This document shows, in pieces, positions 25,145-36,394 of a DNA stretch of 64,000 nucleotides. The number at the start of each line of letters is the position of its first letter. Positions within the stretch are counted from its first letter, which is position 1. The translations under genes and the position numbers were made by a program. The notes beneath the pieces were generated by a model, which had not been told where the DNA came from, did no database searches, and worked only from the letters and a program-made list of their open reading frames with translations. The DNA comes from an uncultured Gammaproteobacteria bacterium (GTDB lineage Bacteria; Patescibacteriota; Microgenomatia; Levybacterales; UBA12049), in the NCBI GenBank assembly GCA_964507055.1, contig CAZDOJ010000001.1, positions 785,313 through 849,312 on the forward strand, read 5' to 3'.

Positions 25145-26164
25145 TCACTTTTTTCGATTCACCATTTTTTGCAAGAATTCTTGGAGTAACTCTCTCATTT
25201 GAGGATCTTGTGTAAGCGTTGGAATGATTTCCTCTGCAACTTCAATGATATTAGTAGACCATTTTTGAGAATAATTAAGGGCACCTGTTGCTATAAATAT
25301 CGCTCTCACTTTTTCAGATTCCAAATGGCGGATTGAACTACTTCCGTAATACTTATTAAGTATCTTTAATTCATCTTTGGTCGCGTTTCTTGCAGCGTAA
25401 CTTATTAAGAGAGTATTCTTTCCTTCTTTTATATCTGAATTCACAGATTTACCTGTAACTCTCTCATCACCAAAAATACCAATAATATCGTCCTGGATTT
25501 GAAATGCTATTCCAAGCTGTGTACCAAAATTTTCTATACAGGATAGTTGCTTTAAATCAGCACCACCAAGTATTGCACCCACACAAAGAGGAGCTACAAA
25601 ACTATATGTCGCTGTTTTTAGTTCATACATTTTCAAGATATGTTCTTCACTCTTTACCGATACTTTGGATAGTTCAATATCAAGCAACTGTCCGACTATC
25701 GTCTGCTGAATTTTGTTGCAATAAAAATCGATTGCTTTCTGTTTTTGATCAACATTGAAATTGGTATTATTTATGATTTGAGCCGACCAAACAAGACCAA
25801 GATCTCCAAAACAGAGAGCCAGAGATTCACCTTTTTTATCGTTACCAAGAGCAACATGCAAACTTGGTCTTCCCCTTCGTGACCTACCTTGATCAATAAT
25901 GTCGTCATGAATAAGAAGAGCCGAATGAACAACTTCGAAAGCACTTGCAATCTCAAGGATCTGATCATCAACCTTTTTTCCAGCTAGCATATAACCTAAA
26001 CACACTAACATCCCTCTGATCATTTTTCCACCAAATAAACTCTCTGAATAATGGTTATATTGTTTTTCTAAATAATTAATTCGGGGATTTTTTTGTGCAA
26101 CTTGTAGCTGAAGCTTTTGCGTTATTTCTTGACTAATTTGTTGATTAAATTCTTTATAATTCAT
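25145..26164 (-). CDS. Polyprenyl diphosphate synthase (trans-isoprenyl diphosphate synthase; FPP/GGPP synthase-like)
   Basis: First Asp-rich motif 'LIHDDIID', second 'FQIQDDIIG', plus the 'GGKMIRG' and 'RRGRPS' substrate-binding blocks. Confidence 0.85.
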   Translation of the reverse strand: MNYKEFNQQISQEITQKLQLQVAQKNPRINYLEKQYNHYSESLFGGKMIRGMLVCLGYMLAGKKVDDQILEIASAFEVVHSALLIHDDIIDQGRSRRGRPSLHVALGNDKKGESLALCFGDLGLVWSAQIINNTNFNVDQKQKAIDFYCNKIQQTIVGQLLDIELSKVSVKSEEHILKMYELKTATYSFVAPLCVGAILGGADLKQLSCIENFGTQLGIAFQIQDDIIGIFGDERVTGKSVNSDIKEGKNTLLISYAARNATKDELKILNKYYGSSSIRHLESEKVRAIFIATGALNYSQKWSTNIIEVAEEIIPTLTQDPQMRELLQEFLQKMVNRKK

Positions 26165-26167
26165 AAT

Positions 26168-28066
26168 TTACTGATTAGTTATATAAGTATTGAGAAATGA
26201 AAGGGCTCGTTGTTTCTCTTTTCTTGCCGTTATAACAGCATGTTCTTGCTCGTCTATAAATTGCTCTAATATCTCTTTATTTGTAACTATGTCTATGCTG
26301 GAAAGAGCAAGACGTGCTTGATATACATGAAGTTCTATTAAGTCACACACGTCTTCAATTGTTTCATTCCAAAATGTCTGTTGCAGATTTGTAGTCGTCC
26401 TCTGTAGAAGTAATGCTGCAACACTATTTATATGTCCTTTTTTTAGATCACTCTCCCAATCATGTGCATCATCATTTATTTGTCGAGCAATTAAGTAATG
26501 TGAGAAAAAATTAAAGAGAGATGCAACATCATTTGCATACTGATTTTTATTACTTAAAAGTATCAAGGCGACACATCCCAATGCATGTCCCATTGAGCGA
26601 TCGGCGAGAACTTGATATGAGCCATAATTAGGTAAAGAAAGCGAGGATAAGTTCGTCGCAGAATTAAAACGACAATGAGTCACTTCCCATGTGTTTACTT
26701 CTTCCAATCGATCCATAACCGACTGAAAAACTTTTTGAAAGCCAATCTCTTCCTTCAAAATGGAATTAAAAATAATTGTTAATTCTCGAAGACAAATATT
26801 TGCAAGTGGTAAAGATGGGATGTCCGGCTCATTATCAAGAAAGTCATCATAAATTGTATATGCAATCCATCCATAAAGACTTGCTGCCCCAAGTTGTACG
26901 AGAATATTCTTCGAAATTTCTTTCTTATCACTTAAAGATTGATAAAAATAATATGGAAGGAGTGTAATTTGCATCATACGATCTTTCTTCAGTGCTTTTT
27001 CAAGATAACTTAAGCCCCGCTTTTGTAGATTTGGTCCAAGTAACAATATTCTTTTTTTAACAATAGATACAACCTGGTTATGTATGGCATTCTTTTTTTT
27101 ATTTTGATGTACTACTATATTTTCTTTTATTTTTTTGTTGTAAAGAGCATATGCTTCCAAGCAGAATGCTGTTGTTAAAGCTTCCGAACCGGCGACATAT
27201 ACTTTATCTTTTTGAGGGTTAACGCCAGTATAAAATGCTGCTGCGGGCCAACTCCCATCAATCCGCTGTAGCATAACAAGCTCCGCTATCAAACGAGAGA
27301 CCGTACTTGATGATGCACCAAGATTGAGAAGAGAAATAGTTTTTAGAGCAATATCTAAAGATGTTACGGCAGACATTTGTAAAACAATTTTTTGAAGTTT
27401 TTTCCTCGATGAACCTTTTAATACTCGGGAAAGGAAATAAAATGTAGCAAAATGATTCGGATAATATGGTGTTGTAAATATTTTATTATTAATAATTTCA
27501 GTAAATAATTTTGATAACTTTGGCAATTTTATATCTTGCATTTGAAGGAAAAAAGCAATATTAGCATTCACACATACATCCACATCTTTCCATATACCTG
27601 GAGCAGTATTGCTTACTAACCATGTTTTGTACGGACCTCCCTCTTGAGTTTCTACCAATGTCAGAATTTTCACTATATGTGCCAATGCCTCACCAGTAAT
27701 TAGCTTCTGATCAAAAAGATATAAAGCTGAGAGTGTACAGAAAGTATCATCCAAATCGTCAGGATACGCCATTGTTTTAGCTTCTGGGGATTGCCTATCC
27801 CAATAATTCCAGGTCCATGAAGAGCTTTTTTGAGAAAGTAAGAATTTAACAGAACTTTTTATAATGCCATCGGTATTTTTTGAATGCGTTAGATTTGTTA
27901 AGGACTGCATAATGAGAGCCGTTGAGAAGATGGTTTTATATTGTATCCTGCTTTTAAAATTAGTATCCGGAGATGAAAAGCTCGTAAAGCATCCATTTTT
28001 GTCTTGAACTTTTTGTAAATATGTAATTCCTCGTTCTGACGATTTTTGTAAGGAAATCTCAAGCAT
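26168..28066 (-). CDS. Two-domain terpene-cyclase-like protein: N-terminal alpha/alpha-toroid (prenyltransferase/squalene-oxidase repeat) domain with a class-II-like 'DLDDTF' motif, C-terminal domain with a class-I-like 'DDFLD' motif
   Basis: 'PDDLDDTFCTLSALYL' parallels the SHC/CPS 'DxDDTA' catalytic motif. The QW-like repeats are 'GITYLQKVQDKNGCF' and 'LQRIDGSWPAAAFY'. The C-terminal 'IYDDFLDN' and 'NDDAHDWESD' are Asp-rich. Confidence 0.5.
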   Translation of the reverse strand: MLEISLQKSSERGITYLQKVQDKNGCFTSFSSPDTNFKSRIQYKTIFSTALIMQSLTNLTHSKNTDGIIKSSVKFLLSQKSSSWTWNYWDRQSPEAKTMAYPDDLDDTFCTLSALYLFDQKLITGEALAHIVKILTLVETQEGGPYKTWLVSNTAPGIWKDVDVCVNANIAFFLQMQDIKLPKLSKLFTEIINNKIFTTPYYPNHFATFYFLSRVLKGSSRKKLQKIVLQMSAVTSLDIALKTISLLNLGASSSTVSRLIAELVMLQRIDGSWPAAAFYTGVNPQKDKVYVAGSEALTTAFCLEAYALYNKKIKENIVVHQNKKKNAIHNQVVSIVKKRILLLGPNLQKRGLSYLEKALKKDRMMQITLLPYYFYQSLSDKKEISKNILVQLGAASLYGWIAYTIYDDFLDNEPDIPSLPLANICLRELTIIFNSILKEEIGFQKVFQSVMDRLEEVNTWEVTHCRFNSATNLSSLSLPNYGSYQVLADRSMGHALGCVALILLSNKNQYANDVASLFNFFSHYLIARQINDDAHDWESDLKKGHINSVAALLLQRTTTNLQQTFWNETIEDVCDLIELHVYQARLALSSIDIVTNKEILEQFIDEQEHAVITARKEKQRALSFLNTYITNQ

Positions 28067-28085: not shown

Positions 28086-28107
28086 AAAGATTAAAAAAAT
28101 ATTAAAT
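28086..28107 (-). promoter_or_regulatory. 22-bp element AAAGATTAAAAAAATATTAAAT (copy 1), about 20 nt upstream of the terpene-cyclase-like gene start
   Basis: Exact repeat of 30381-30402, in the same position relative to a minus-strand start codon. Candidate shared promoter or operator. Confidence 0.45.
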
Positions 28108-29511
28108 CTTTTTGAGTAGAGGAAAGGTTATTGTAAAAGTACTTCCGACATTTAATTTTGAATCTACTAAGACTTGTCCCTTAAAATCCTTTGTTACAAT
28201 ATCATAACTAATGGAAAGACCAACTCCAGTCCCCTTCCGATAGCCTTTTGTCGAAAAGAATGGTTCAAATATTTTCTCTAGATCTTTTGCTGATATGCCT
28301 TTTCCAAAATCTTGAATAATTATTTTTACTTCTTCTACTTCTTTTGAAAGAAAGATGTCGACGGTCCTTCTTTTTCTGCGTAATCCATCATAGGCATCAA
28401 TTGCGTTTGAGAGGAAGTTACACATAAATTGGTGAAACTTTAAGGGATTGCCATAGATACGGATAGTCTTAGTGAAATGAAAGCCTACAAGTACCTTATT
28501 CTTTTTTGATTTATAATTAAGTATCTCAATTGCTTCATAGATTTCATTATTAACTGAGAAATATTCAAGTAAGTCCTGATTATTTACTTGCTTTCTTGTC
28601 GATAAAATAAAACTTTCAAGTCGATTTATACCTACAGTTGCTCGAGCAACGATAGCATGCATATCATCAATATTGTTCTTACTACTTTCCAATTGTTTTA
28701 AATTCGCAGATACTAAGTTGACGGAATTAGAAAGGTCATGAAGGAATTCCGAAGCAGACTTACCAAATTCTGCAAACTTATACAATTGAGCAACTCGTAC
28801 TGCTTGCTCTTGCCGCAACGCTTTTGTTTTTTCTTCTACTTTTTGGGCTAAAGAATCCCTCTCTCTTTGTAATGCTTTTTCAGAAAGTCTAGCTCTCTTT
28901 AAAGCAAGTTCACCTTCTCTATTAAATAACCATGATACTATCGCTATTACCAAAAATGTTACTGTAGCGACAATAGTATCGCCCATTGTAAGTTCTGTAC
29001 GCTGCCAAAGTAGTTGCGGTGCTTCGAGGTATACTAATTGTACTATTGTTATCACAGATAAAGATATCCCGATGACTACTGCTACAATAAGAGAGAGCCT
29101 ACTATTGATTAGTATCCCTGAAAAAACAATTATAAGAGCATATGTTAAAAGACCTTGCGGAAAATCAGCACCCCAACGGTAGGCACCCCATGTAGTAAGA
29201 AGATATAAAGAAGTAATAATAATGTAGGAAGCAATATTTGATTTCCCAATTCTTGATAAATAGTAATTAAATAGCAGGAAACAGAGTATGAGTATTAATT
29301 CTCTCGACGCACCTTTAACAGCTAAGTGAAACAATTCGCTGATAAGTGCATCAGCGAGAGCTATACATGTTAAAAGAATAAAGCTCAATAATAGAATATT
29401 GAGAATACGTTCACGCCTAGACTTGTCCTTATTCTTTGAACGAGAATCCACTAAAAGCCTTGCGATTGATACTGTATTTTGAAATACATTTAGTAAACTT
29501 CGTTTTAGCAT
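28102..29511 (-). CDS. Membrane sensor histidine kinase, peptide-sensor (HPK10/AgrC-ComD-like) type
   Basis: About 6 N-terminal TM helices. The phosphorylated-His box 'EFLHDLSNSVNLV' resembles AgrC 'EFRHDYKNHLLVL' rather than HisKA 'HELRTPL'. N-box 'FLSNAIDA', G1 'QDFGKGI', G2 'GTGVGL'. Confidence 0.8.
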   Translation of the reverse strand: MLKRSLLNVFQNTVSIARLLVDSRSKNKDKSRRERILNILLLSFILLTCIALADALISELFHLAVKGASRELILILCFLLFNYYLSRIGKSNIASYIIITSLYLLTTWGAYRWGADFPQGLLTYALIIVFSGILINSRLSLIVAVVIGISLSVITIVQLVYLEAPQLLWQRTELTMGDTIVATVTFLVIAIVSWLFNREGELALKRARLSEKALQRERDSLAQKVEEKTKALRQEQAVRVAQLYKFAEFGKSASEFLHDLSNSVNLVSANLKQLESSKNNIDDMHAIVARATVGINRLESFILSTRKQVNNQDLLEYFSVNNEIYEAIEILNYKSKKNKVLVGFHFTKTIRIYGNPLKFHQFMCNFLSNAIDAYDGLRRKRRTVDIFLSKEVEEVKIIIQDFGKGISAKDLEKIFEPFFSTKGYRKGTGVGLSISYDIVTKDFKGQVLVDSKLNVGSTFTITFPLLKKI

Positions 29512-29568
29512 CAGAACAATTATAAACTTTTTCTCTGTTTACCTGCTATTACCTATTTTGTTAGTAAA

Positions 29569-29676
29569 CTAACTCCATGGGTGAAAAGCTGATTCAGCAA
29601 TAATCTTTTTTTCAGATTTTGCTTTATTATTACGAATAGACTTATTCGTTAATAATTCTTTCATTAAGGATTTCAT
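29569..29676 (-). CDS. Small ORF (35 aa, MKSLMKELLTNKSIRNNKAKSEKKIIAESAFHPWS) between the regulator and kinase genes; candidate pheromone or RiPP precursor
   Basis: AAGGAGGTGA lies 4 nt before the ATG and directly after the regulator's stop codon. The peptide is basic with a single Trp two residues from the C-terminus. Not in the supplied track because it is under 60 aa. Confidence 0.45.
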   Translation of the reverse strand: MKSLMKELLTNKSIRNNKAKSEKKIIAESAFHPWS

Positions 29677-29690
29677 GACATCACCTCCTT

Positions 29691-30359
29691 TCATTCTTCT
29701 ATCTTATACCCATATCCATGTACGGTTTTGATAAGTTTTTTATTATAATTTCTATCAACTTGGTCTCTGAGATATTTAATATGGACATCCACTACATTAT
29801 TATCCGATTCGTAGCTACTTTCCCAAATATGGTCAAATATCATAGAACGGGTTAAAACTCTTCCAGCATTTCTCATCATATATTCTAAAAGGTCAAAATC
29901 TTTTCTTTTAAGTTGGAGCACTTGGTTATTTCTTTTTGCTACCCTTTGTGTGAGATCTATTGTTAGACTATCTACTGCAATGACATTTGAATGAAGTTTT
30001 GGAGAAGAACGTCGTAAAACAGCCTCAATTCTTGCATGAATCTCTTTTTCATCAACTGGTTTTACAATATAGTCATCTGCCCCACTATTGAGTGCTTGAA
30101 CTTTATTAGCAACTTCGCCAGTACCTGTGAGCATAATTATTGGAGTTGTTATACCTTCAGCTCGGAGATCCTTGCAAACTTGTATCCCATCAATATCAGG
30201 TAATTGATAATCAATGATGATCAAACTGTAATCATAGATATATGCCTTATACTCTCCTTCTTGACCGGTGTTTGCAATTTCAAAGATATAATACTTCTGA
30301 AGACCAGAGGCTAAAGTCTCAGCACTTACTTTATCATCCTCTATTAAAAGTATTTTCAT
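29691..30359 (-). CDS. OmpR/PhoB-family response regulator (receiver plus winged-helix output)
   Basis: 'LLIEDD', the 'IIDYQLPDIDG' phospho-Asp region, and the C-terminal 'VVDVHIKYLRDQV...TVHGYGYKI' winged helix. Confidence 0.9.
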   Translation of the reverse strand: MKILLIEDDKVSAETLASGLQKYYIFEIANTGQEGEYKAYIYDYSLIIIDYQLPDIDGIQVCKDLRAEGITTPIIMLTGTGEVANKVQALNSGADDYIVKPVDEKEIHARIEAVLRRSSPKLHSNVIAVDSLTIDLTQRVAKRNNQVLQLKRKDFDLLEYMMRNAGRVLTRSMIFDHIWESSYESDNNVVDVHIKYLRDQVDRNYNKKLIKTVHGYGYKIEE

Positions 30360-30380: not shown

Positions 30381-30402
30381 AAAGATTAAAAAAATATTAA
30401 AT
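30381..30402 (-). promoter_or_regulatory. 22-bp element AAAGATTAAAAAAATATTAAAT (copy 2), about 22 nt upstream of the response-regulator start
   Basis: Exact repeat of 28086-28107. Confidence 0.45.
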
Positions 30403-30422
30403 GATTAATGTGTTAATCATTT
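30399..30422. promoter_or_regulatory. Perfect 10-4-10 palindrome AAATGATTAA-TGTG-TTAATCATTT in the divergent promoter region
   Basis: Read directly from the sequence. It overlaps the 3' end of 22-mer copy 2. Confidence 0.4.
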
Positions 30423-30459
30423 TTTAACAAAAGCTACCTTTAATTATTGATAGAGATCT

Positions 30460-30873
30460 ATGTCTAAAGGTAGAGCAATTATTATTTTCTTCACGATAGT
30501 AACGATAGTTGCAGTTACGTTTTTCGGATTTAATAAATACAGGCAGCCTCAACAATCAAAGACATTTCATGCAGTTTTTCTCTCAAATGATCAAGTTTAT
30601 TTTGGTAAGGTTGCGGAGGATACCGAGACTAATTTAACGCTTACTGATGTCTACTATCTTAAAGCAAGTACAGACACGACAGCAATAAAAAATCTTACGA
30701 AAGAAAATTCAGCAACAGCTAAATTGGCGTTGGTAAAGCTGGGGGAAGAACTCCATGCTCCAAAAGACAAGATCGCTATTAATAAAGAACATATCTTATT
30801 TACTGAAGAAATGGAATCAAATGGAACAATTATGGATGCAATTAGAAGGTATGAACAAAAAATTTCTCAATAA
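30460..30873 (+). CDS. Hypothetical membrane-anchored protein
   Basis: N-terminal TM. No recognisable motif. Confidence 0.4.
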   Translation: MSKGRAIIIFFTIVTIVAVTFFGFNKYRQPQQSKTFHAVFLSNDQVYFGKVAEDTETNLTLTDVYYLKASTDTTAIKNLTKENSATAKLALVKLGEELHAPKDKIAINKEHILFTEEMESNGTIMDAIRRYEQKISQ

Positions 30874-33244
30874 CATAGCGATTGGATGCACTTTATTTTT
30901 GGGTTCACTAATACAGCCTATGACTATTTTTGCTTCTCCAAAAATTGATGTCGCTCCCCTCAAACTACTAGATCAAGAAACAACAAAGTACATAGGGGGA
31001 GAGGAAAAACCAGTGGCTGTTTGGGAGATGCCAATTGACCAAGATCTTTTAAGAGAATTAGGTCTTATGCAAAATGGTGAAAGCTCTGCACCAATAAATA
31101 CCAACCATATACAATATCTCACAACAGTATTACAGAACGAATCCCTTATTTTACAAGGACGATCACCACTGTACTTTAGAAACTCTTCAAACATCAATCA
31201 GATTTCTATAGAAATTAACACTCCTACACAGAATCGATATATTACATTGCCAGATAGATCTGGAGAAATTACAGTACTTGGACAGACAATCTCAGGAGAA
31301 GAAATTGATGATCGCGGAATTGATTTGGTAACAAAAACTACAGGAGATTATGTGCAATCCGTAGTCTCGGGCAGTGGCATAGCAATATCTGGAGGTACGG
31401 GAAAAGGGATAACAGCAGATCTTTCTCTTGGCGATCTTACCAAAGATTGGATACAATCTGCACCATTTGATATTGTAATTAACAATCCCGATAGCGGTCT
31501 CAAATTAATCGATGCAAGTGGAAATCACTTTGCAAGAATTGCTGTAGATACACTTGCCAATGATGTAACACTGAAATTAAGCGGAGCAGGAGGAACACTC
31601 CTTACTGATGATAACTTCTCATCACTTGTTGACTTACCTGATGGATTAGATAACCTCTCTGGACTTACAGATCTTGTTGCTGCACGTTCAAACTTAGGAC
31701 TCGGAGATATTGCTACTCAAAATACAAACGACTTCCTTACTGTTTCAAATAATCTCTCGGAGTTAACGGATATAACACAAGCACGTAGCAATTTAGCACT
31801 TGGGGACATCGTGACACAAAACAGCAGTTCTTTTTTTAGTACAGCAAATAATTTATCAGAATTAACTGACACATCAATCGCTCAAACAAATTTAGGTTTA
31901 GGGACTATGGCAACAGAATCAGTAGAAAATTTTTTAAATGCGAACAATAATCTTTCGGAGATTACAGACTCTGCACTTGCCCGAAGTAACTTAGCCCTTG
32001 GAAGTATCGCTATATATGATAATGATGATTTCTTTAATGTATCAAATAATCTTGCTGAAATTACTGATATGAGTATGGCTCGGGGTAATTTAGGACTCGA
32101 AGAAATGGCGACACAACATATTAGCAGTTTCCTTCAAACAGCAAACAGCTTGTCAGAAGTTGATCCATCAACTGCAAGAACAAACCTTGGATTAGGCGAT
32201 ATTGCAACACAATCAATAGGATCATTTTTACAAGTCAGTAATAATTTAGCTGAGATCGACCCAATGGCTGCAAGAATAAACTTAGGACTTGGATCAAGTG
32301 CTATACAAAATGCTAATGCCTTTTTACAAACTACAAATAACTTATCTGAAATTGCAGATCCTTCGATTGCAAGAATGTCACTCGGTTTAGGAACAATTGC
32401 GACACAACCACTTTCAAATTTTGTGCAGACAACAAACAACCTTTCAGACATAAGCAATACAACAATTGGAAGGACTAATTTAGGACTTGGTTCGATTGCC
32501 ACGCAAAGTGCTTCAAGTATCGCACTTACGGGAGGAACACTTAACGGTGTAGCAATCGGAGCAACTACACCAGCAAATGCGGCATTTAGCACTCTCACCT
32601 CGTCAGGCAATACGGTACTCGGATCATCTGGGAGTACAACAATTGGTAATGGATCCAGTACCGTCCAAATTTCATCGAACGGACTTAATATTTCATCAAG
32701 TGGAGCAATTTCAGGAGTAACAGGATACACACAATCATCGGGCAATTTTGCATTGTCGGGTAATGGAAGTCTTACTACGGGTACAGGCAATGTATCAATA
32801 AATGGAGATACGACAGTAGCATCGGGAAAAACAGTAAATCTCACATCGAATGACAGTCTAAGAGTTGGTGGAAGCATCGTCCCACAAACAGTGACAATTG
32901 TTGTACCAATGCTTGCAACCCTCTCAGTAGGATTGAACGATCAGGTAGTTTTTGTTTCTGATAATGTCTATGCATTAGCAGGTGCACGATGTGTCTATTC
33001 TGCTGCTGCGTCGATTGGAGCAAATCTTCAAGTGACTGTTGATGCAGGGACCGCTGCACCAGGGACAGGAACAGACCAACTCACAGCAAGTATTAATCTC
33101 GGAAGCACATTAAATACTGTTTATACAGGAACTGTGATTGGATCACCTACTCCTATCAATATAAACGATAAAGTAAGTATAGACTTTTCAGGAACACTCA
33201 TAGGAATTCTTGGAAGTTGCACAATCACACTCAAAAGAACATAA
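30851..33244 (+). CDS. Large secreted repeat protein with nine tandem ~33-aa 'NNLSE(I/L)TD-x3-AR(S/T)NLGLG-x2-ATQ' repeats (tail-fibre-like) and a Gly/Ser/Thr-rich C-terminal domain
   Basis: Start moved to the internal Met that begins a signal peptide (MNKKFLNNIAIGCTLFLGSLIQPMTIFASP). The repeats span about 31620-32530. The 'AR.NLGLG' periodicity is reminiscent of phage tail-fibre repeats. Confidence 0.55.
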   Translation: MNKKFLNNIAIGCTLFLGSLIQPMTIFASPKIDVAPLKLLDQETTKYIGGEEKPVAVWEMPIDQDLLRELGLMQNGESSAPINTNHIQYLTTVLQNESLILQGRSPLYFRNSSNINQISIEINTPTQNRYITLPDRSGEITVLGQTISGEEIDDRGIDLVTKTTGDYVQSVVSGSGIAISGGTGKGITADLSLGDLTKDWIQSAPFDIVINNPDSGLKLIDASGNHFARIAVDTLANDVTLKLSGAGGTLLTDDNFSSLVDLPDGLDNLSGLTDLVAARSNLGLGDIATQNTNDFLTVSNNLSELTDITQARSNLALGDIVTQNSSSFFSTANNLSELTDTSIAQTNLGLGTMATESVENFLNANNNLSEITDSALARSNLALGSIAIYDNDDFFNVSNNLAEITDMSMARGNLGLEEMATQHISSFLQTANSLSEVDPSTARTNLGLGDIATQSIGSFLQVSNNLAEIDPMAARINLGLGSSAIQNANAFLQTTNNLSEIADPSIARMSLGLGTIATQPLSNFVQTTNNLSDISNTTIGRTNLGLGSIATQSASSIALTGGTLNGVAIGATTPANAAFSTLTSSGNTVLGSSGSTTIGNGSSTVQISSNGLNISSSGAISGVTGYTQSSGNFALSGNGSLTTGTGNVSINGDTTVASGKTVNLTSNDSLRVGGSIVPQTVTIVVPMLATLSVGLNDQVVFVSDNVYALAGARCVYSAAASIGANLQVTVDAGTAAPGTGTDQLTASINLGSTLNTVYTGTVIGSPTPININDKVSIDFSGTLIGILGSCTITLKRT

Positions 33245-33246
33245 TT

Positions 33247-34092
33247 ATGACCAAATCAATAAAAATAATTATTCTTCTTTCAGCATTTTGCCTTATAACA
33301 TTTGGTGTTCTCTTTTGGTTAAATACTTCAAAAGCAGCTACTTTAACTGATATTTTTTATTATGAACCTTGTGTAAATACAAAAAAATATTATATCGCGA
33401 CAATTGATGAGAGGTTTAAGTTTTCCAATAACGAGTTTAAAAACCAAATTAATGATGCAGCAGCTATGTGGTCAGATGCATATGGAGCAAATTTATTTAC
33501 CTACGATCCACATGGAACGCTTTCAATAAATCTTGTCTATAACAGAAGAAATACTCCTAAATGGATTGAGCAGTACGATCCTATTACTGATGAACAACTT
33601 GCACTTACGCAAGCGGAGACGAGAGCACAGGAAGAAAAAAATCATCAAGAGTTGCAACGAATTAGTGAAGAGCGAGAACTGTTAAAAAAAGTTAGTAAAG
33701 TAACATTAATGCCAGAAGAAGATGAATCTCGATATATTGATGAAATAACTATTGCCACTGAAATGATGATGAGTGGAGATATCGCAACAATTGAAGAAGC
33801 AGTTTACGATCCAACGGATGAGAAAATTGATATTTTTACTTATCGATCACCTGCAGAATTAAAACATACTTTAGCTCATGAAATGGGACATGCACTTGGA
33901 TTAGAACATACAGATGATCCTAATTCAATTATGTATTTTGAAGTGAATGATGCAATAAAACTTACAGAAGCAGATAAAAAAGAATTACAACAAGCATGCG
34001 GCTCTCAAAATATGGCAATTCATATGAAACGATCAATGGATATGCTCCCTTATTATTTGGGACTTCCGGAAACACTGCTTATCTCCTACTAA
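33247..34092 (+). CDS. Secreted metzincin (matrixin/M10-like) zinc metalloprotease
   Basis: 'HEMGHALGLEH' (HExxHxxGxxH) followed by the Met-turn 'SIMY'. N-terminal signal anchor. Start re-assigned to the ATG at 33247, directly after the upstream stop. Confidence 0.7.
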   Translation: MTKSIKIIILLSAFCLITFGVLFWLNTSKAATLTDIFYYEPCVNTKKYYIATIDERFKFSNNEFKNQINDAAAMWSDAYGANLFTYDPHGTLSINLVYNRRNTPKWIEQYDPITDEQLALTQAETRAQEEKNHQELQRISEERELLKKVSKVTLMPEEDESRYIDEITIATEMMMSGDIATIEEAVYDPTDEKIDIFTYRSPAELKHTLAHEMGHALGLEHTDDPNSIMYFEVNDAIKLTEADKKELQQACGSQNMAIHMKRSMDMLPYYLGLPETLLISY

Positions 34093-34099
34093 TCCACTA

Positions 34100-36394
34100 T
34101 TAATTCACAATAACATTGAGGAGTTTTTGTGGTAAAGATTGGTCTGATGGTTGTGTAAGTGTTTGTTGTTGGGGCACAACTTGATCCGTGACAGTATTAA
34201 CAATTTGAGGTACCTGTTGGATAGTCTCTTGGACAGATGGCTGTGAAGGAATTATCACAGGATTTGTTGGTATAGAGGGATTGCTTTGAACTTGTGAGAC
34301 CTGATTAATAATCTGTGGCAAAGCATTCTGTATACCTGGTTGTACAATTTGTTTTTCTACTTTTGCTGTGACAGGAGCAGCTAAAGCACTGACAGGAGAA
34401 GAAACAGTTTGCAATTGATCTTGATATCGAGACAATATTTCCTTGTTTGTTATTTCACCAATGAGGTAGTCACCCATATCTTTTTGATAAACATTTAATG
34501 CTTTAGAAACTATCTGATTTGCCTGAGGTGTCAAATCATTATCAATATCAGCGATGATTGCTCCACTATAAGGAATTATTGGAAGCTCGGTTCTTCCTGC
34601 ACCTAAATCAGATACTAACTTCGTAAGTGCCAAAGATCTGGTCGTGGTAAGTGCATCAAGAACTTCACTGTTTTTTATTTTTTCAGAACCGAGATTTTCA
34701 ACTGCATTGAGTAGTGCAACATCGTAGATATCTGGCTTTCTCATTAATCGTTGCATGAACTCGCTGTCACTAATGTCATTAACACCATCAAAATTTGTTA
34801 CAAATTTTTCAAGTGCTTCTTTTTTAGCAGACGCTATCTCTTTAACAAGTGCACCGGATTCATTGGTATCGTTAAGATCTGCCAATGTTTTCTTAAGATG
34901 AGCCTCCATCACAATTAACCTTTTGAGATCTTCAAGATCACCAGATGCATAGTGATTGATAAATTGAAGTCTTTCTTTTTCAGGCAGCTGTATTAATGTT
35001 TTCTCAAGTTTATTAACAGCAGTATCAGAGGCAGCACGAGTAATATTGCGTGCGTCTTCATTCTCAGTAATTGGTAAGAGATCAAGTGTTTCTATAGATT
35101 GAATTAATCGAACGGGAGAGTTTCCTGCAAATCCTAGTACAGCATTTAATTGTTCTTCTTCCGGTAAAGAAACAAGTTCTTGTACAAATACACCTGCGAC
35201 TGTTTGTTCGAGAAGTGAAATAGTAGGCCTTGCCCCAATACCAACTCTATTTTCTAAATCATTAAGAATATTAATTGTATGGAGTGCTTCTACAGGTGAA
35301 TTAATTGAACCAGTAACTAAATTTGTCACAACATCTGCATCATTGTCCGAAACATCAAGCAAATGTGTCACAATAACTCCAACCTCTGCAAGATGATCAA
35401 GTCGGACTTTCTCTATTTCAAGCGAAACAAGATTTGTATCTATATTCTCAGCTGCTTGTAGTAATATTTGCTGGACTATCAATTGATTACTCATACCGTT
35501 GAAAAGAACGATTGTTGCATCAGTATCTCGAACAGGAGAATCAGTAATTATTTCGCCAGCTTTTTTAACTAAATCTGAAGATCCTTTAAAAGTATCAACC
35601 GCTAGTTGGTCAGTATCTTCACCAGTATTCTTTTCGAGAAGCATCAAACCTTCAAGTGTTTTCATATTTGACTGCTCCAAATAGTTGTACGTTTTTCCAA
35701 GAGGATCTGGTGTCACCCAATTATCTAACGAACGATTTAATTCAACCATTGGATAAAGAATATTGTCCGGAAGTGTTGGTGAGACATCTCCTGCAAGTAC
35801 TTCATTTGGAAGAGTAAGATCATTTAATAAACCCGGTTGGATTGCTGGATCAAAATTCCCAGTATTTACAAGTTCACCTAAAGCCAAAGATCGATTGGAA
35901 TCATTTGTTGTCGAACTATTTCCATTGCCAGGCGTTGTTGTAATATTTGTTGTATTTCCAGGATTCTGTGGTTGATTAAAAATAACTGGAGATGATTGTC
36001 CAGTTTGTTGTGGAATAAAATACATCATGGGGACATAATATGGCATTGAACCACTTCCTGAATTAGTTATTTGATTTGATGAAGGTAACCCTCTTGTAGA
36101 ACTACTATTACTACTCGTTGTAGGATCTGTACTTCCAGAAGTTAACGGGATAAGAATTTGCTCACCAGTTCCTGAAACACCAGCGAGGGCATAGCGTTGT
36201 GTACCTGTATTTGCATCCTCTCTTTGTAAAAGGGCCTGCGACCTATCGAAGAAATAGAGAACTACGTTACCCAAAAGAAATAGAAGCAATAGTGCAAGTC
36301 CACAAATAATACCTCCAGAGACAATTTTGGATCCAACGGATTGTTTCGCTGAATGAGTAGGTTCAACTACATTTGTATGTTTGTTCTCTTTCAT
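34100..36394 (-). CDS. Large hypothetical surface protein (N-terminal TM, Ser/Thr/Asn-rich and Gln/Pro-rich low-complexity ends, helical central region)
   Basis: 764-aa ORF with composition only. Confidence 0.45.
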   Translation of the reverse strand: MKENKHTNVVEPTHSAKQSVGSKIVSGGIICGLALLLLFLLGNVVLYFFDRSQALLQREDANTGTQRYALAGVSGTGEQILIPLTSGSTDPTTSSNSSSTRGLPSSNQITNSGSGSMPYYVPMMYFIPQQTGQSSPVIFNQPQNPGNTTNITTTPGNGNSSTTNDSNRSLALGELVNTGNFDPAIQPGLLNDLTLPNEVLAGDVSPTLPDNILYPMVELNRSLDNWVTPDPLGKTYNYLEQSNMKTLEGLMLLEKNTGEDTDQLAVDTFKGSSDLVKKAGEIITDSPVRDTDATIVLFNGMSNQLIVQQILLQAAENIDTNLVSLEIEKVRLDHLAEVGVIVTHLLDVSDNDADVVTNLVTGSINSPVEALHTINILNDLENRVGIGARPTISLLEQTVAGVFVQELVSLPEEEQLNAVLGFAGNSPVRLIQSIETLDLLPITENEDARNITRAASDTAVNKLEKTLIQLPEKERLQFINHYASGDLEDLKRLIVMEAHLKKTLADLNDTNESGALVKEIASAKKEALEKFVTNFDGVNDISDSEFMQRLMRKPDIYDVALLNAVENLGSEKIKNSEVLDALTTTRSLALTKLVSDLGAGRTELPIIPYSGAIIADIDNDLTPQANQIVSKALNVYQKDMGDYLIGEITNKEILSRYQDQLQTVSSPVSALAAPVTAKVEKQIVQPGIQNALPQIINQVSQVQSNPSIPTNPVIIPSQPSVQETIQQVPQIVNTVTDQVVPQQQTLTQPSDQSLPQKLLNVIVN

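Follow-up and report, generated by a model that had tools for sequence, protein, structure and literature searches.

The 64-kb stretch analysed here and called the window (positions 785,313 to 849,312 of contig CAZDOJ010000001.1, assembly GCA_964507055.1, placed by GTDB in the Patescibacteriota) contains, at 30755..33244 on the forward strand (+), an open reading frame (ORF) for a long protein with nine tandem repeats, hereafter the fibre. With a probability of about 0.6, this protein is a Sec-exported surface fibre made by the cell itself, of variable length, probably trimeric, provided with a distal head and lying outside any prophage. It would be composed of three modules: (i) an N-terminal module (N-module); (ii) a shaft of nine repeats; (iii) a Gly/Ser/Thr extension carrying a small head of the jelly-roll or C1q/TNF-like type. 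By analogy with gp92, the short tail fibre of phage P7-1, the assembled form would be a trimer with a length of some 30 nm or more. In it, the N-terminal side would face the cell and the head would lie at the far end, able to bind a ligand, the length of the shaft being presumably set by the number of repeats (0-11 among orthologues). The gene is probably co-transcribed with its upstream neighbour, which codes for a small membrane protein with a single pass (the partner), possibly an anchor or a helper for export or assembly, and an adjacent divergent two-component system is a possible regulator of the pair. Trimer formation, surface display, orientation, binding by the head, the role of the partner and the control by the two-component system are what we infer from the results below.

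With the ATG at 30851 the fibre has 797 amino acids (aa). The public gene call of the identical protein (P0001), encoded on a 1.32-Mb contig, uses the ATG at 30821 and gives 807 aa. From the ATG at 30851 the N-terminus reads MNKKFLNNIAIGCTLFLGSLIQPMTIFA, followed by SP, and resembles a Sec signal peptide; as read from the sequence, this peptide would cover aa 1-28 (30851..30934, +), with a predicted cleavage after IFA. The orthologue N-termini that were displayed have a hydrophobic stretch ending at an AxA-like site. A lipoprotein signal (AIGC, aa 10-13) was considered and dropped, since the Cys is not conserved among orthologues. Then come the N-module (aa ~50-262; 30998..31636, +), delimited by its conservation in orthologues (alignments A5/A6), nine shaft repeats of 32 or 33 aa (aa 266-560; 31646..32530, +), recognised by pattern matching and by the PHROG, tblastn and PDB searches, the extended Gly/Ser/Thr-rich segment (aa 561-680; 32531..32890, +), defined by its composition and by an AlphaFold2 (AF2) model, and the C-terminal head domain (aa 681-797 plus the stop codon; 32891..33244, +), defined by the alignments A1, A2 and A4 and by AF2. 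A preliminary description of this locus had announced nine repeats, a secreted protein and a beta-like C-terminus rich in Gly, Ser and Thr; these are indeed recovered by pattern matching, composition and AF2. Pfam and NCBIfam gave nothing relevant for the fibre: Phage_fiber_2, named in that description as a family to check, was not matched, and neither repeat, N-module nor head is covered by a curated model.

The repeat is of the form NNLSE(I/L)TD...AR.NLGLG...ATQ....FLQ. Pattern matching finds nine cores of the AR.NLGLG type (aa 278-547), with a spacing of 33, 33, 33, 33, 32, 32, 33 and 33 residues. Eight of the NNLSE-type cores fit the strict pattern and the first unit is degenerate (DNLSGL). 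No further copy of the repeat core turns up when the window is translated in all six frames, and the core is therefore not due to chance. The mean identity between units is 46% for amino acids and 52% for nucleotides (nt), and Tandem Repeats Finder detects no DNA-level array at this place because the repeats are too diverged. The repeats thus compared are old. Moreover, the repeats inside one protein are no more alike than the repeats of different orthologues, and there is therefore no sign of a recent expansion.

The likeness of these repeats to tail-fibre repeats, also announced in the preliminary description, is real: it is found by homology in PHROG, by tblastn and in PDB entry 9zd7. The PHROG matches are phrog_2282 («tail fiber protein», E=1.6e-56), phrog_158 (E=8.5e-33) and phrog_29482 (E=1.8e-22). 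By tblastn, 232 phage records upon 50,697 are matched, over aa ~266-565 only; nearly all are Pseudomonas phages (P7-1/PAK_P1-like, KIL-like, REC, PaMx12) and most matches are annotated as tail fibre. The PDB sequence search gives one real relative, chain 9zd7_AE, i.e., «short tail fiber gp92» of Pakpunavirus P7-1 (E=7.1e-24), aligned repeat to repeat with the fibre over 160 residues. The window repeats are truly homologous to the shaft repeats of phage tail fibres, and the homology with known phages is confined to the shaft. The gp92 protein is a slender trimer ~410 Å long and ~25 Å thick, with knobs at both ends, the N-terminal knob docking on the baseplate (bioRxiv 10.1101/2025.11.26.690771). 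From the dimensions of gp92, the rise along the shaft is estimated at ~1 Å per residue, and nine repeats would then measure ~30 nm. Elsewhere the shaft repeat is paired with Gp53-like_C, Peptidase_S74, Mtd_N or Gly_rich_2 ends; the 33-residue repeat acts as a promiscuous shaft module. A literature search on the NLGLG motif gave nothing relevant.

The core of the N-module, ~110 aa long, runs from LPDxSGE..LLGQ through SLGDLTxDWxQ to GTLLT, and the motifs of the module are ITLPDxSGEITxLGQ, SLGDLTxDWxQ and GxxGTLLT. The N-terminal 236 aa have no PHROG match at E<0.4, no tblastn match in the 50,697 phage records and no relative in PDB. The N-module has no Pfam match, and a word-index protein search with the N-terminal domain was empty, which is weak evidence of absence. 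The search of 1.84 billion representatives with the N-module profile gave 1026 proteins at E<=1e-3, and P0001 fits this profile over its whole length (317 bits). The same core is found in up to 16 copies in giant proteins of 1000-5800 aa, e.g., P0130 (2862 aa) and P0131 (5838 aa). In these giant proteins (P0130-P0275) Pfam recognises almost nothing.

The segment of aa 561-680 contains 53% of Gly+Ser+Thr, with TGGTLNGVAIG and TGTGNVSLNG-type motifs. AF2 models this segment as an extended chain, without regular secondary structure, with a predicted local distance difference test score (pLDDT) of ~80 at model residues 21-70, and it aligns with collagen-like stalks in BFVD. The head begins directly after SLRVGGSIVPQ. 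The AF2 model of the last 200 aa, obtained with seven sequences in the alignment, gives for the head (last ~117 aa) a beta-sandwich of 8 strands (mean pLDDT 66), which is tentatively read as a small trimeric jelly-roll on a stalk. With Foldseek the PDB matches of the head include VP2 of infectious bursal disease virus (IBDV), TNF-alpha, FasL, BxpB/ExsFA, a TNF-like lectin (PLTL) and gpJ of lambda, all of them weak (E~1e-3). In BFVD, the best match is an unnamed protein of 133 aa (E=6e-6, TM-score of 0.70 on the target, 26% identity), and the next ones are many giant-virus or phage proteins with a collagen stalk and a C1q-like head. The sequence search of PDB with the C-terminal 237 aa, which contain the head, gave no relative; the same residues have no PHROG family and no tblastn match in GenBank phages. 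Cys714 (32990-32992) and Cys790 (33218-33220) are invariant in the five aligned cellular heads and absent from phage heads, a pattern that would fit a disulfide bond in a protein that is exported.

Beyond the orthologues, the relatives of the head are uncultured phage sequences only, i.e., P0121-P0124 and eleven IMG/VR loci. The word-index search with the C-terminal domain returned only these four phage-like proteins, P0121-P0124; the known orthologues were not listed again, so absence from this search is weak evidence. In at least 7-8 phage loci, the gene of the head relative comes directly after a major-capsid gene. The neighbouring capsid family is SU10_MCP in L006 and L016, phrog_1328 in L010, phrog_4523 and phrog_371 in L020, Phage_capsid in L012 and L015, a weak Phage_cap_E in L019 and, with one gene between, phrog_9953 in L011. 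The gene order indicates that the head relatives belong to the capsid module of phages with differing capsid families, of which they may be head fibres or decoration proteins. Units of the TGTGA.(S/T)LNG type, like those of the Gly/Ser/Thr segment of the window fibre, are present in many copies in phage relatives, e.g., L010 and L017. It should be noted that several of these phage proteins have a hydrophobic N-terminus resembling a signal peptide, which is odd for a virion protein.

About ten orthologues are available, some of them from metagenome-assembled genomes (MAGs) of Patescibacteria; they have in common the signal peptide, the N-module and the head, with 0-11 repeats. Among the 120 best matches, both the N- and the C-terminal regions are common to P0002-P0005 only. 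The N-module profile search added P0142, P0155, P0167 and P0186, and the metagenome loci added a variant (L043/L044), whose protein in L043 has the head and no match to the N-module profile. The NLGLG repeat is present in 9 copies in the window fibre; the orthologues have 11 in P0002, 6 in P0003, 2 in P0004, 1 in each of P0005, P0142, P0155, P0167 and P0186, and 0 in L043. In the members poor in repeats, the stalk is filled by other fibrous modules, e.g., TLTLPxxSDTLVG...TLTNKT units. The head of the family follows the pattern ...ADxLTVGGxI(V/I)PQ...LKR(V/I/A/T), and that of the window is 41-58% identical to those of the orthologues. A scan of genome contigs with a profile from a head alignment of 5 sequences placed two members in MAGs, titled Candidatus Kerfeldbacteria (Parcubacteria group) and Candidatus Woykebacteria (Microgenomates group), both groups being part of the Patescibacteria. 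These orthologues, a genome of 1.3 Mb and the gene content also make Patescibacteria/CPR the most likely affiliation of the window. The partial Kerfeldbacteria protein of L021 is contained within P0155. The Woykebacteria copy (L022, 9388-10522) consists of a 285-aa head ORF and a preceding, overlapping ORF of 121 aa in another frame, pointing to a pseudogene, a frameshift or a faulty assembly. The window protein has all the elements by which the family is defined: signal peptide, N-module, variable stalk, head of the type ADxLTVGGxIPQ...LKRV, and partner gene directly upstream. The fibre is better regarded as part of an established cellular family that has modules in common with phages, and not as the recent capture of a tail fibre.

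The overall design, in which a repeat stalk varying in length joins an N-terminal attachment region to a TNF/C1q-like head, would also suit a structural component of the envelope (hair-like nap, spacer or S-layer-associated fibre) having no specific ligand, comparable to the filaments formed by BclA in the Bacillus exosporium. Two exosporium proteins, BxpB and ExsFA, figure in the list of fold matches, and the head is rather well conserved (the above 41-58% identity) and not hypervariable. However, collagen repeats are absent and the evidence from the fold is weak. This explanation is held as unlikely, and it must be added that structural and adhesive roles are not separable on these data.

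The strong homology of the shaft to bona fide tail fibres and the occurrence of head relatives in uncultured phage contigs raise the question of a remnant or domesticated prophage or tailocin, the fibre being still the receptor-binding protein of a phage-like particle. Such an origin is very improbable, the context having already largely refuted it: (i) no phage-type Pfam match is found among the genes within +/-10 kb nor among 20 further genes of the window, which agrees with the preliminary statement that flanking phage genes are not obvious; (ii) a Sec-type signal peptide is unusual for virion proteins; (iii) the N-terminal region is without relative in GenBank phages or PHROGs; (iv) the fibre gene is syntenic with cellular genes in several lineages; (v) the phage relatives of the head are in the capsid module, not in the tail module. 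Apart from the partner, the fibre, the M10-type peptidase that follows it and a 764-aa membrane protein, the genes within +/-10 kb code for an ATPase of the ABC/UvrA-like type, a polyprenyl synthase, a protein of 632 aa, the histidine kinase and OmpR-type response regulator of the two-component system, DUF1801, a member of the exo/endonuclease-phosphatase family, a cyclic-nucleotide (cNMP)-binding protein, a diacylglycerol (DAG) kinase, PAP2 and a class-I tRNA synthetase. The 20 further genes are ordinary chromosomal or unannotated ones, among which GH18, DD-carboxypeptidases, an HflX-type GTPase, a transporter of the major facilitator superfamily (MFS), a class-II tRNA synthetase, RecJ, the CCA enzyme, an ABC exporter, SecD and DUF3048. 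The G+C content of the window is flat (0.33-0.41).

The former proposal of a domesticated phage receptor-binding protein is thereby retained for the shaft, which is homologous to that of phages, and not for the rest: there is no prophage, the ends are without relatives in GenBank phages or PHROGs, and the synteny is conserved. The two signs by which this proposal was to be judged point in opposite directions, since the number of repeats varies (0-11), in its favour, and the gene lies in a conserved synteny, against it.

The conserved block comprises the 632-aa protein, the histidine kinase, a micro-ORF of 37-41 aa and the response regulator, then in the divergent direction the partner and the fibre, and finally a 764-aa protein on the opposite strand. 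It is found in the window, in L009 (=L027) and in L043+L044, and partly in L024; it is conserved across at least three lineages. The partner (137 aa, a single transmembrane segment at its N-terminus) is encoded at 30460..30873 (+), in overlap with the beginning of the fibre gene, of which it is the conserved upstream companion. No Pfam, NCBIfam or PHROG family is found for this small protein. A homologue lies directly upstream of the fibre gene, on the same strand, in the five loci (5/5) first examined (alignment A3: identity of 30-45%, with 25 invariant columns). The same holds for L026, L027, L029, L043 and L044; in all, 10/10 loci having upstream sequence carry it, with lengths of 128-141 aa.

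The partner is not restricted to the fibre. The metagenome scan with the partner alignment gave 47 loci (L026-L072), only 5 of which have a fibre-family gene downstream. Among the downstream same-strand ORFs, 31 upon 39 have a hydrophobic signal-like N-terminus, and they belong to several unrelated families. The small membrane protein is thus a general upstream companion of secreted-looking proteins, for which it may be a general helper or anchor. A role as dedicated anchor of the fibre was rejected as fibre-specific, since the partner precedes many unrelated secreted-looking proteins.

A signal peptide without recognisable anchor, together with the presence of the TNF-like lectin PLTL among the fold matches, could also correspond to a soluble lectin-like or toxin-like protein which is released and not attached to the cell. 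We regard this as quite improbable: a rigid shaft of 300 residues is of no obvious use to a soluble effector, and the fact that it is consistently encoded beside a membrane protein points to a connection with the cell.

Several points weigh against the reading as a surface fibre made by the cell. The protein has no recognisable cell-wall or membrane anchor and no LPXTG-type C-terminus, its final residues being TITLKRT. The partner precedes other genes in 42 of the 47 loci, mostly those of other secreted-looking proteins, and its role as anchor for this particular fibre is speculative. The AF2 model of the N-terminal 285 aa (pLDDT 42) is unusable; the model of the head is of low confidence, and its Foldseek matches are weak both in PDB and, for the best one, in BFVD. 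Finally, it is from gp92 that we infer the formation of a trimer, and surface retention and ligand binding are likewise presumed.

The gene following the fibre (33247..34092, +) codes for an M10-type metzincin (Pfam Peptidase_M10) of 281 aa with an N-terminal hydrophobic segment, and its ATG at 33247 is 3 nt past the fibre stop. Its identification as a metzincin, already made from the letters of the sequence, is upheld by the motifs HEMGHALGLEH (33877-33909) and SIMY (33925-33936) and by the match to PF00413 Peptidase_M10 (E=7.1e-11; 42.7 bits for a gathering cut-off of 24). In NCBIfam, no equivalog reaches its cut-off for this protein. The fibre and the metzincin had been regarded as a possible module. 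They would form an adhesion and proteolysis unit, the part of the protease being, for example, to process the fibre or else to degrade whatever surface the fibre binds; the distance of 3 nt makes co-transcription likely, and both products carry export signals. This explanation is nevertheless improbable and the idea of a module finds no support: no M10 gene was found in any other fibre-family locus examined, and other genes occupy its place, i.e., a DUF5667 protein in L009, DUF389 in L023, an opposite-strand ORF of 203 aa in L025 (with only ~0.8 kb of downstream flank) and the 764-aa homologue in L043. Because this homologue is in L043 the next conserved gene after the fibre, with no M10 between, the gene order suggests that the protease gene is an insertion specific to the lineage of the window.

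The divergent two-component system as a whole covers 28102..30359 (-), and the same arrangement is found beside the partner and the fibre in L009/L027, L044 and L024. It consists of the histidine kinase (28102-29511, -; Pfam HATPase_c), a conserved micro-ORF of 41 aa (29569-29694, -; homologues in L009 and L024) located between kinase and regulator, and the divergent OmpR-type response regulator (29691-30359, -; Pfam Response_reg+Trans_reg_C). The micro-ORF reads MKGGDVMKSLMKELLTNKSIRNNK...HPWS. Its counterparts (37-41 aa), placed between kinase and regulator in L009 and beside a kinase fragment in L024, have in common K.(L/V/I)LT(N/D)(K/R)..R and PW near the C-terminus. It could code for a small regulator or a peptide tied to the two-component system. 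Between the response regulator and the partner gene there is an AT-rich palindrome (TTAAAAAAATATTAAATGATTAAT / ATTAATGTGTTAATCATTTTTTAA; 30386-30427), partly conserved in L044; it could be an operator, in a region so rich in A and T that chance is also possible. Promoter and terminator scans were uninformative.

On the other side of the fibre, the syntenic neighbour is the 764-aa membrane protein (34100..36394, -), with a weak DUF5667 match (E=0.008). In L043 its homologue (E=6e-103) comes after the fibre orthologue, and a DUF5667 protein has the same position in L009. This membrane protein contains long stretches of low complexity rich in Ser, Thr, Asn, Gln and Pro. At the far end of the block, the 632-aa protein (26168-28066, -) adjoins the polyprenyl synthase (25145-26164, -); it is strongly conserved in the block of L027 and L044 (E~1e-135), and its N-terminus gives only faint squalene-cyclase-like matches. 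It may be an enzyme related to prenyl or terpenoid compounds.

As to the function of the surface fibre, adhesion or contact with a host would be plausible, given that the cultivated Patescibacteria are episymbiotic (PMC12206443). According to the same paper, the way in which ultrasmall episymbionts identify and bind their host cells is given as largely unknown, type IV pili being the sole well-studied players. A more precise scheme, which is possible and on the whole doubtful, would be that of a Patescibacteria fibre made from modules shared with phages (tail-fibre shaft and capsid-fibre-type head) that would recognise and hold the surface of another cell, as phages do, and would serve host recognition in an episymbiotic life, with a reach tuned by the number of repeats (0-11), anchoring or assembly by the partner and control by the two-component system.

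The locus defines a small unannotated family of exported fibres, known to date from MAGs of Patescibacteria and from metagenome contigs without assignment, which joins the tail-fibre shaft of phages with a head otherwise found only in uncultured phages. If it is true that the head binds a ligand of the host surface, the fibre would offer host recognition a concrete candidate open to test, and a clear case of fibre modules shared between cells and phages. If there is no host ligand, it would still illustrate neatly how fibres evolve by modules, the shaft having 0-11 repeats or being replaced by stalk modules of another kind. Two by-products can be mentioned: (i) a widespread small membrane protein encoded before many secreted-looking proteins; (ii) a module of ~110 aa repeated up to 16 times in giant proteins.

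The comparison with known systems leads to the following. The metzincin resembles the matrixin-type M10 metzincins by HExxHxxGxxH, by the Met-turn-like SIMY and by PF00413 above threshold, and differs from them by a charged, probably helical insertion of ~60 residues before the active site. For the fibre, the tandem repeat of ~33 residues (NLSDL...AR.NLGL) is common with gp92 of P7-1 (9zd7) and phrog_2282. However, the window fibre is devoid of the N-terminal baseplate-binding knob and of the C-terminal knob of gp92, has a signal peptide and sits among cellular genes. Gp53-like_C and Peptidase_S74, carried by the phage relatives, give no Pfam match in it at E<=1. The fibre is outside the strict tail-fibre family because three of the five defining features are lacking, i.e., an N-terminal attachment domain, a phage context and a known knob.

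Proteins named «Tail fiber domain-containing protein» contain the shaft repeat: those of Patescibacteria MAGs, e.g., MES2930470.1 (=P0007), with 41-44% identity to the repeats of the window fibre, and those of Salmonella prophages (934 aa) with 33-34%. They differ by a Peptidase_S74 intramolecular-chaperone end and by the absence of the N-module and head of the window family. Conversely, the capsid-module proteins of uncultured phages (P0121-P0124, L010-L020), none of which is represented in GenBank phages or PHROGs, resemble the fibre by the head (28-41% identity, ADxLTVGGxI(V/I)PQ...KR(V/I)) and by units of the TGTGA.(S/T)LNG type, but have neither the NLGLG shaft nor the N-module. BclA with BxpB/ExsFA, and the collagen-like proteins of giant viruses and phages, which recur among the Foldseek matches, have as the fibre a repeat stalk whose copy number sets the length, and a small trimeric jelly-roll head, the latter as tentatively predicted for the fibre. 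On the contrary, there is no sequence similarity with them, the likeness of fold comes from a model of pLDDT 66, and collagen GXY repeats are absent from the window fibre (no Collagen Pfam match; period of 33 aa, not 3). By analogy with these systems, the fibre would work like a phage fibre or a BclA-type filament.

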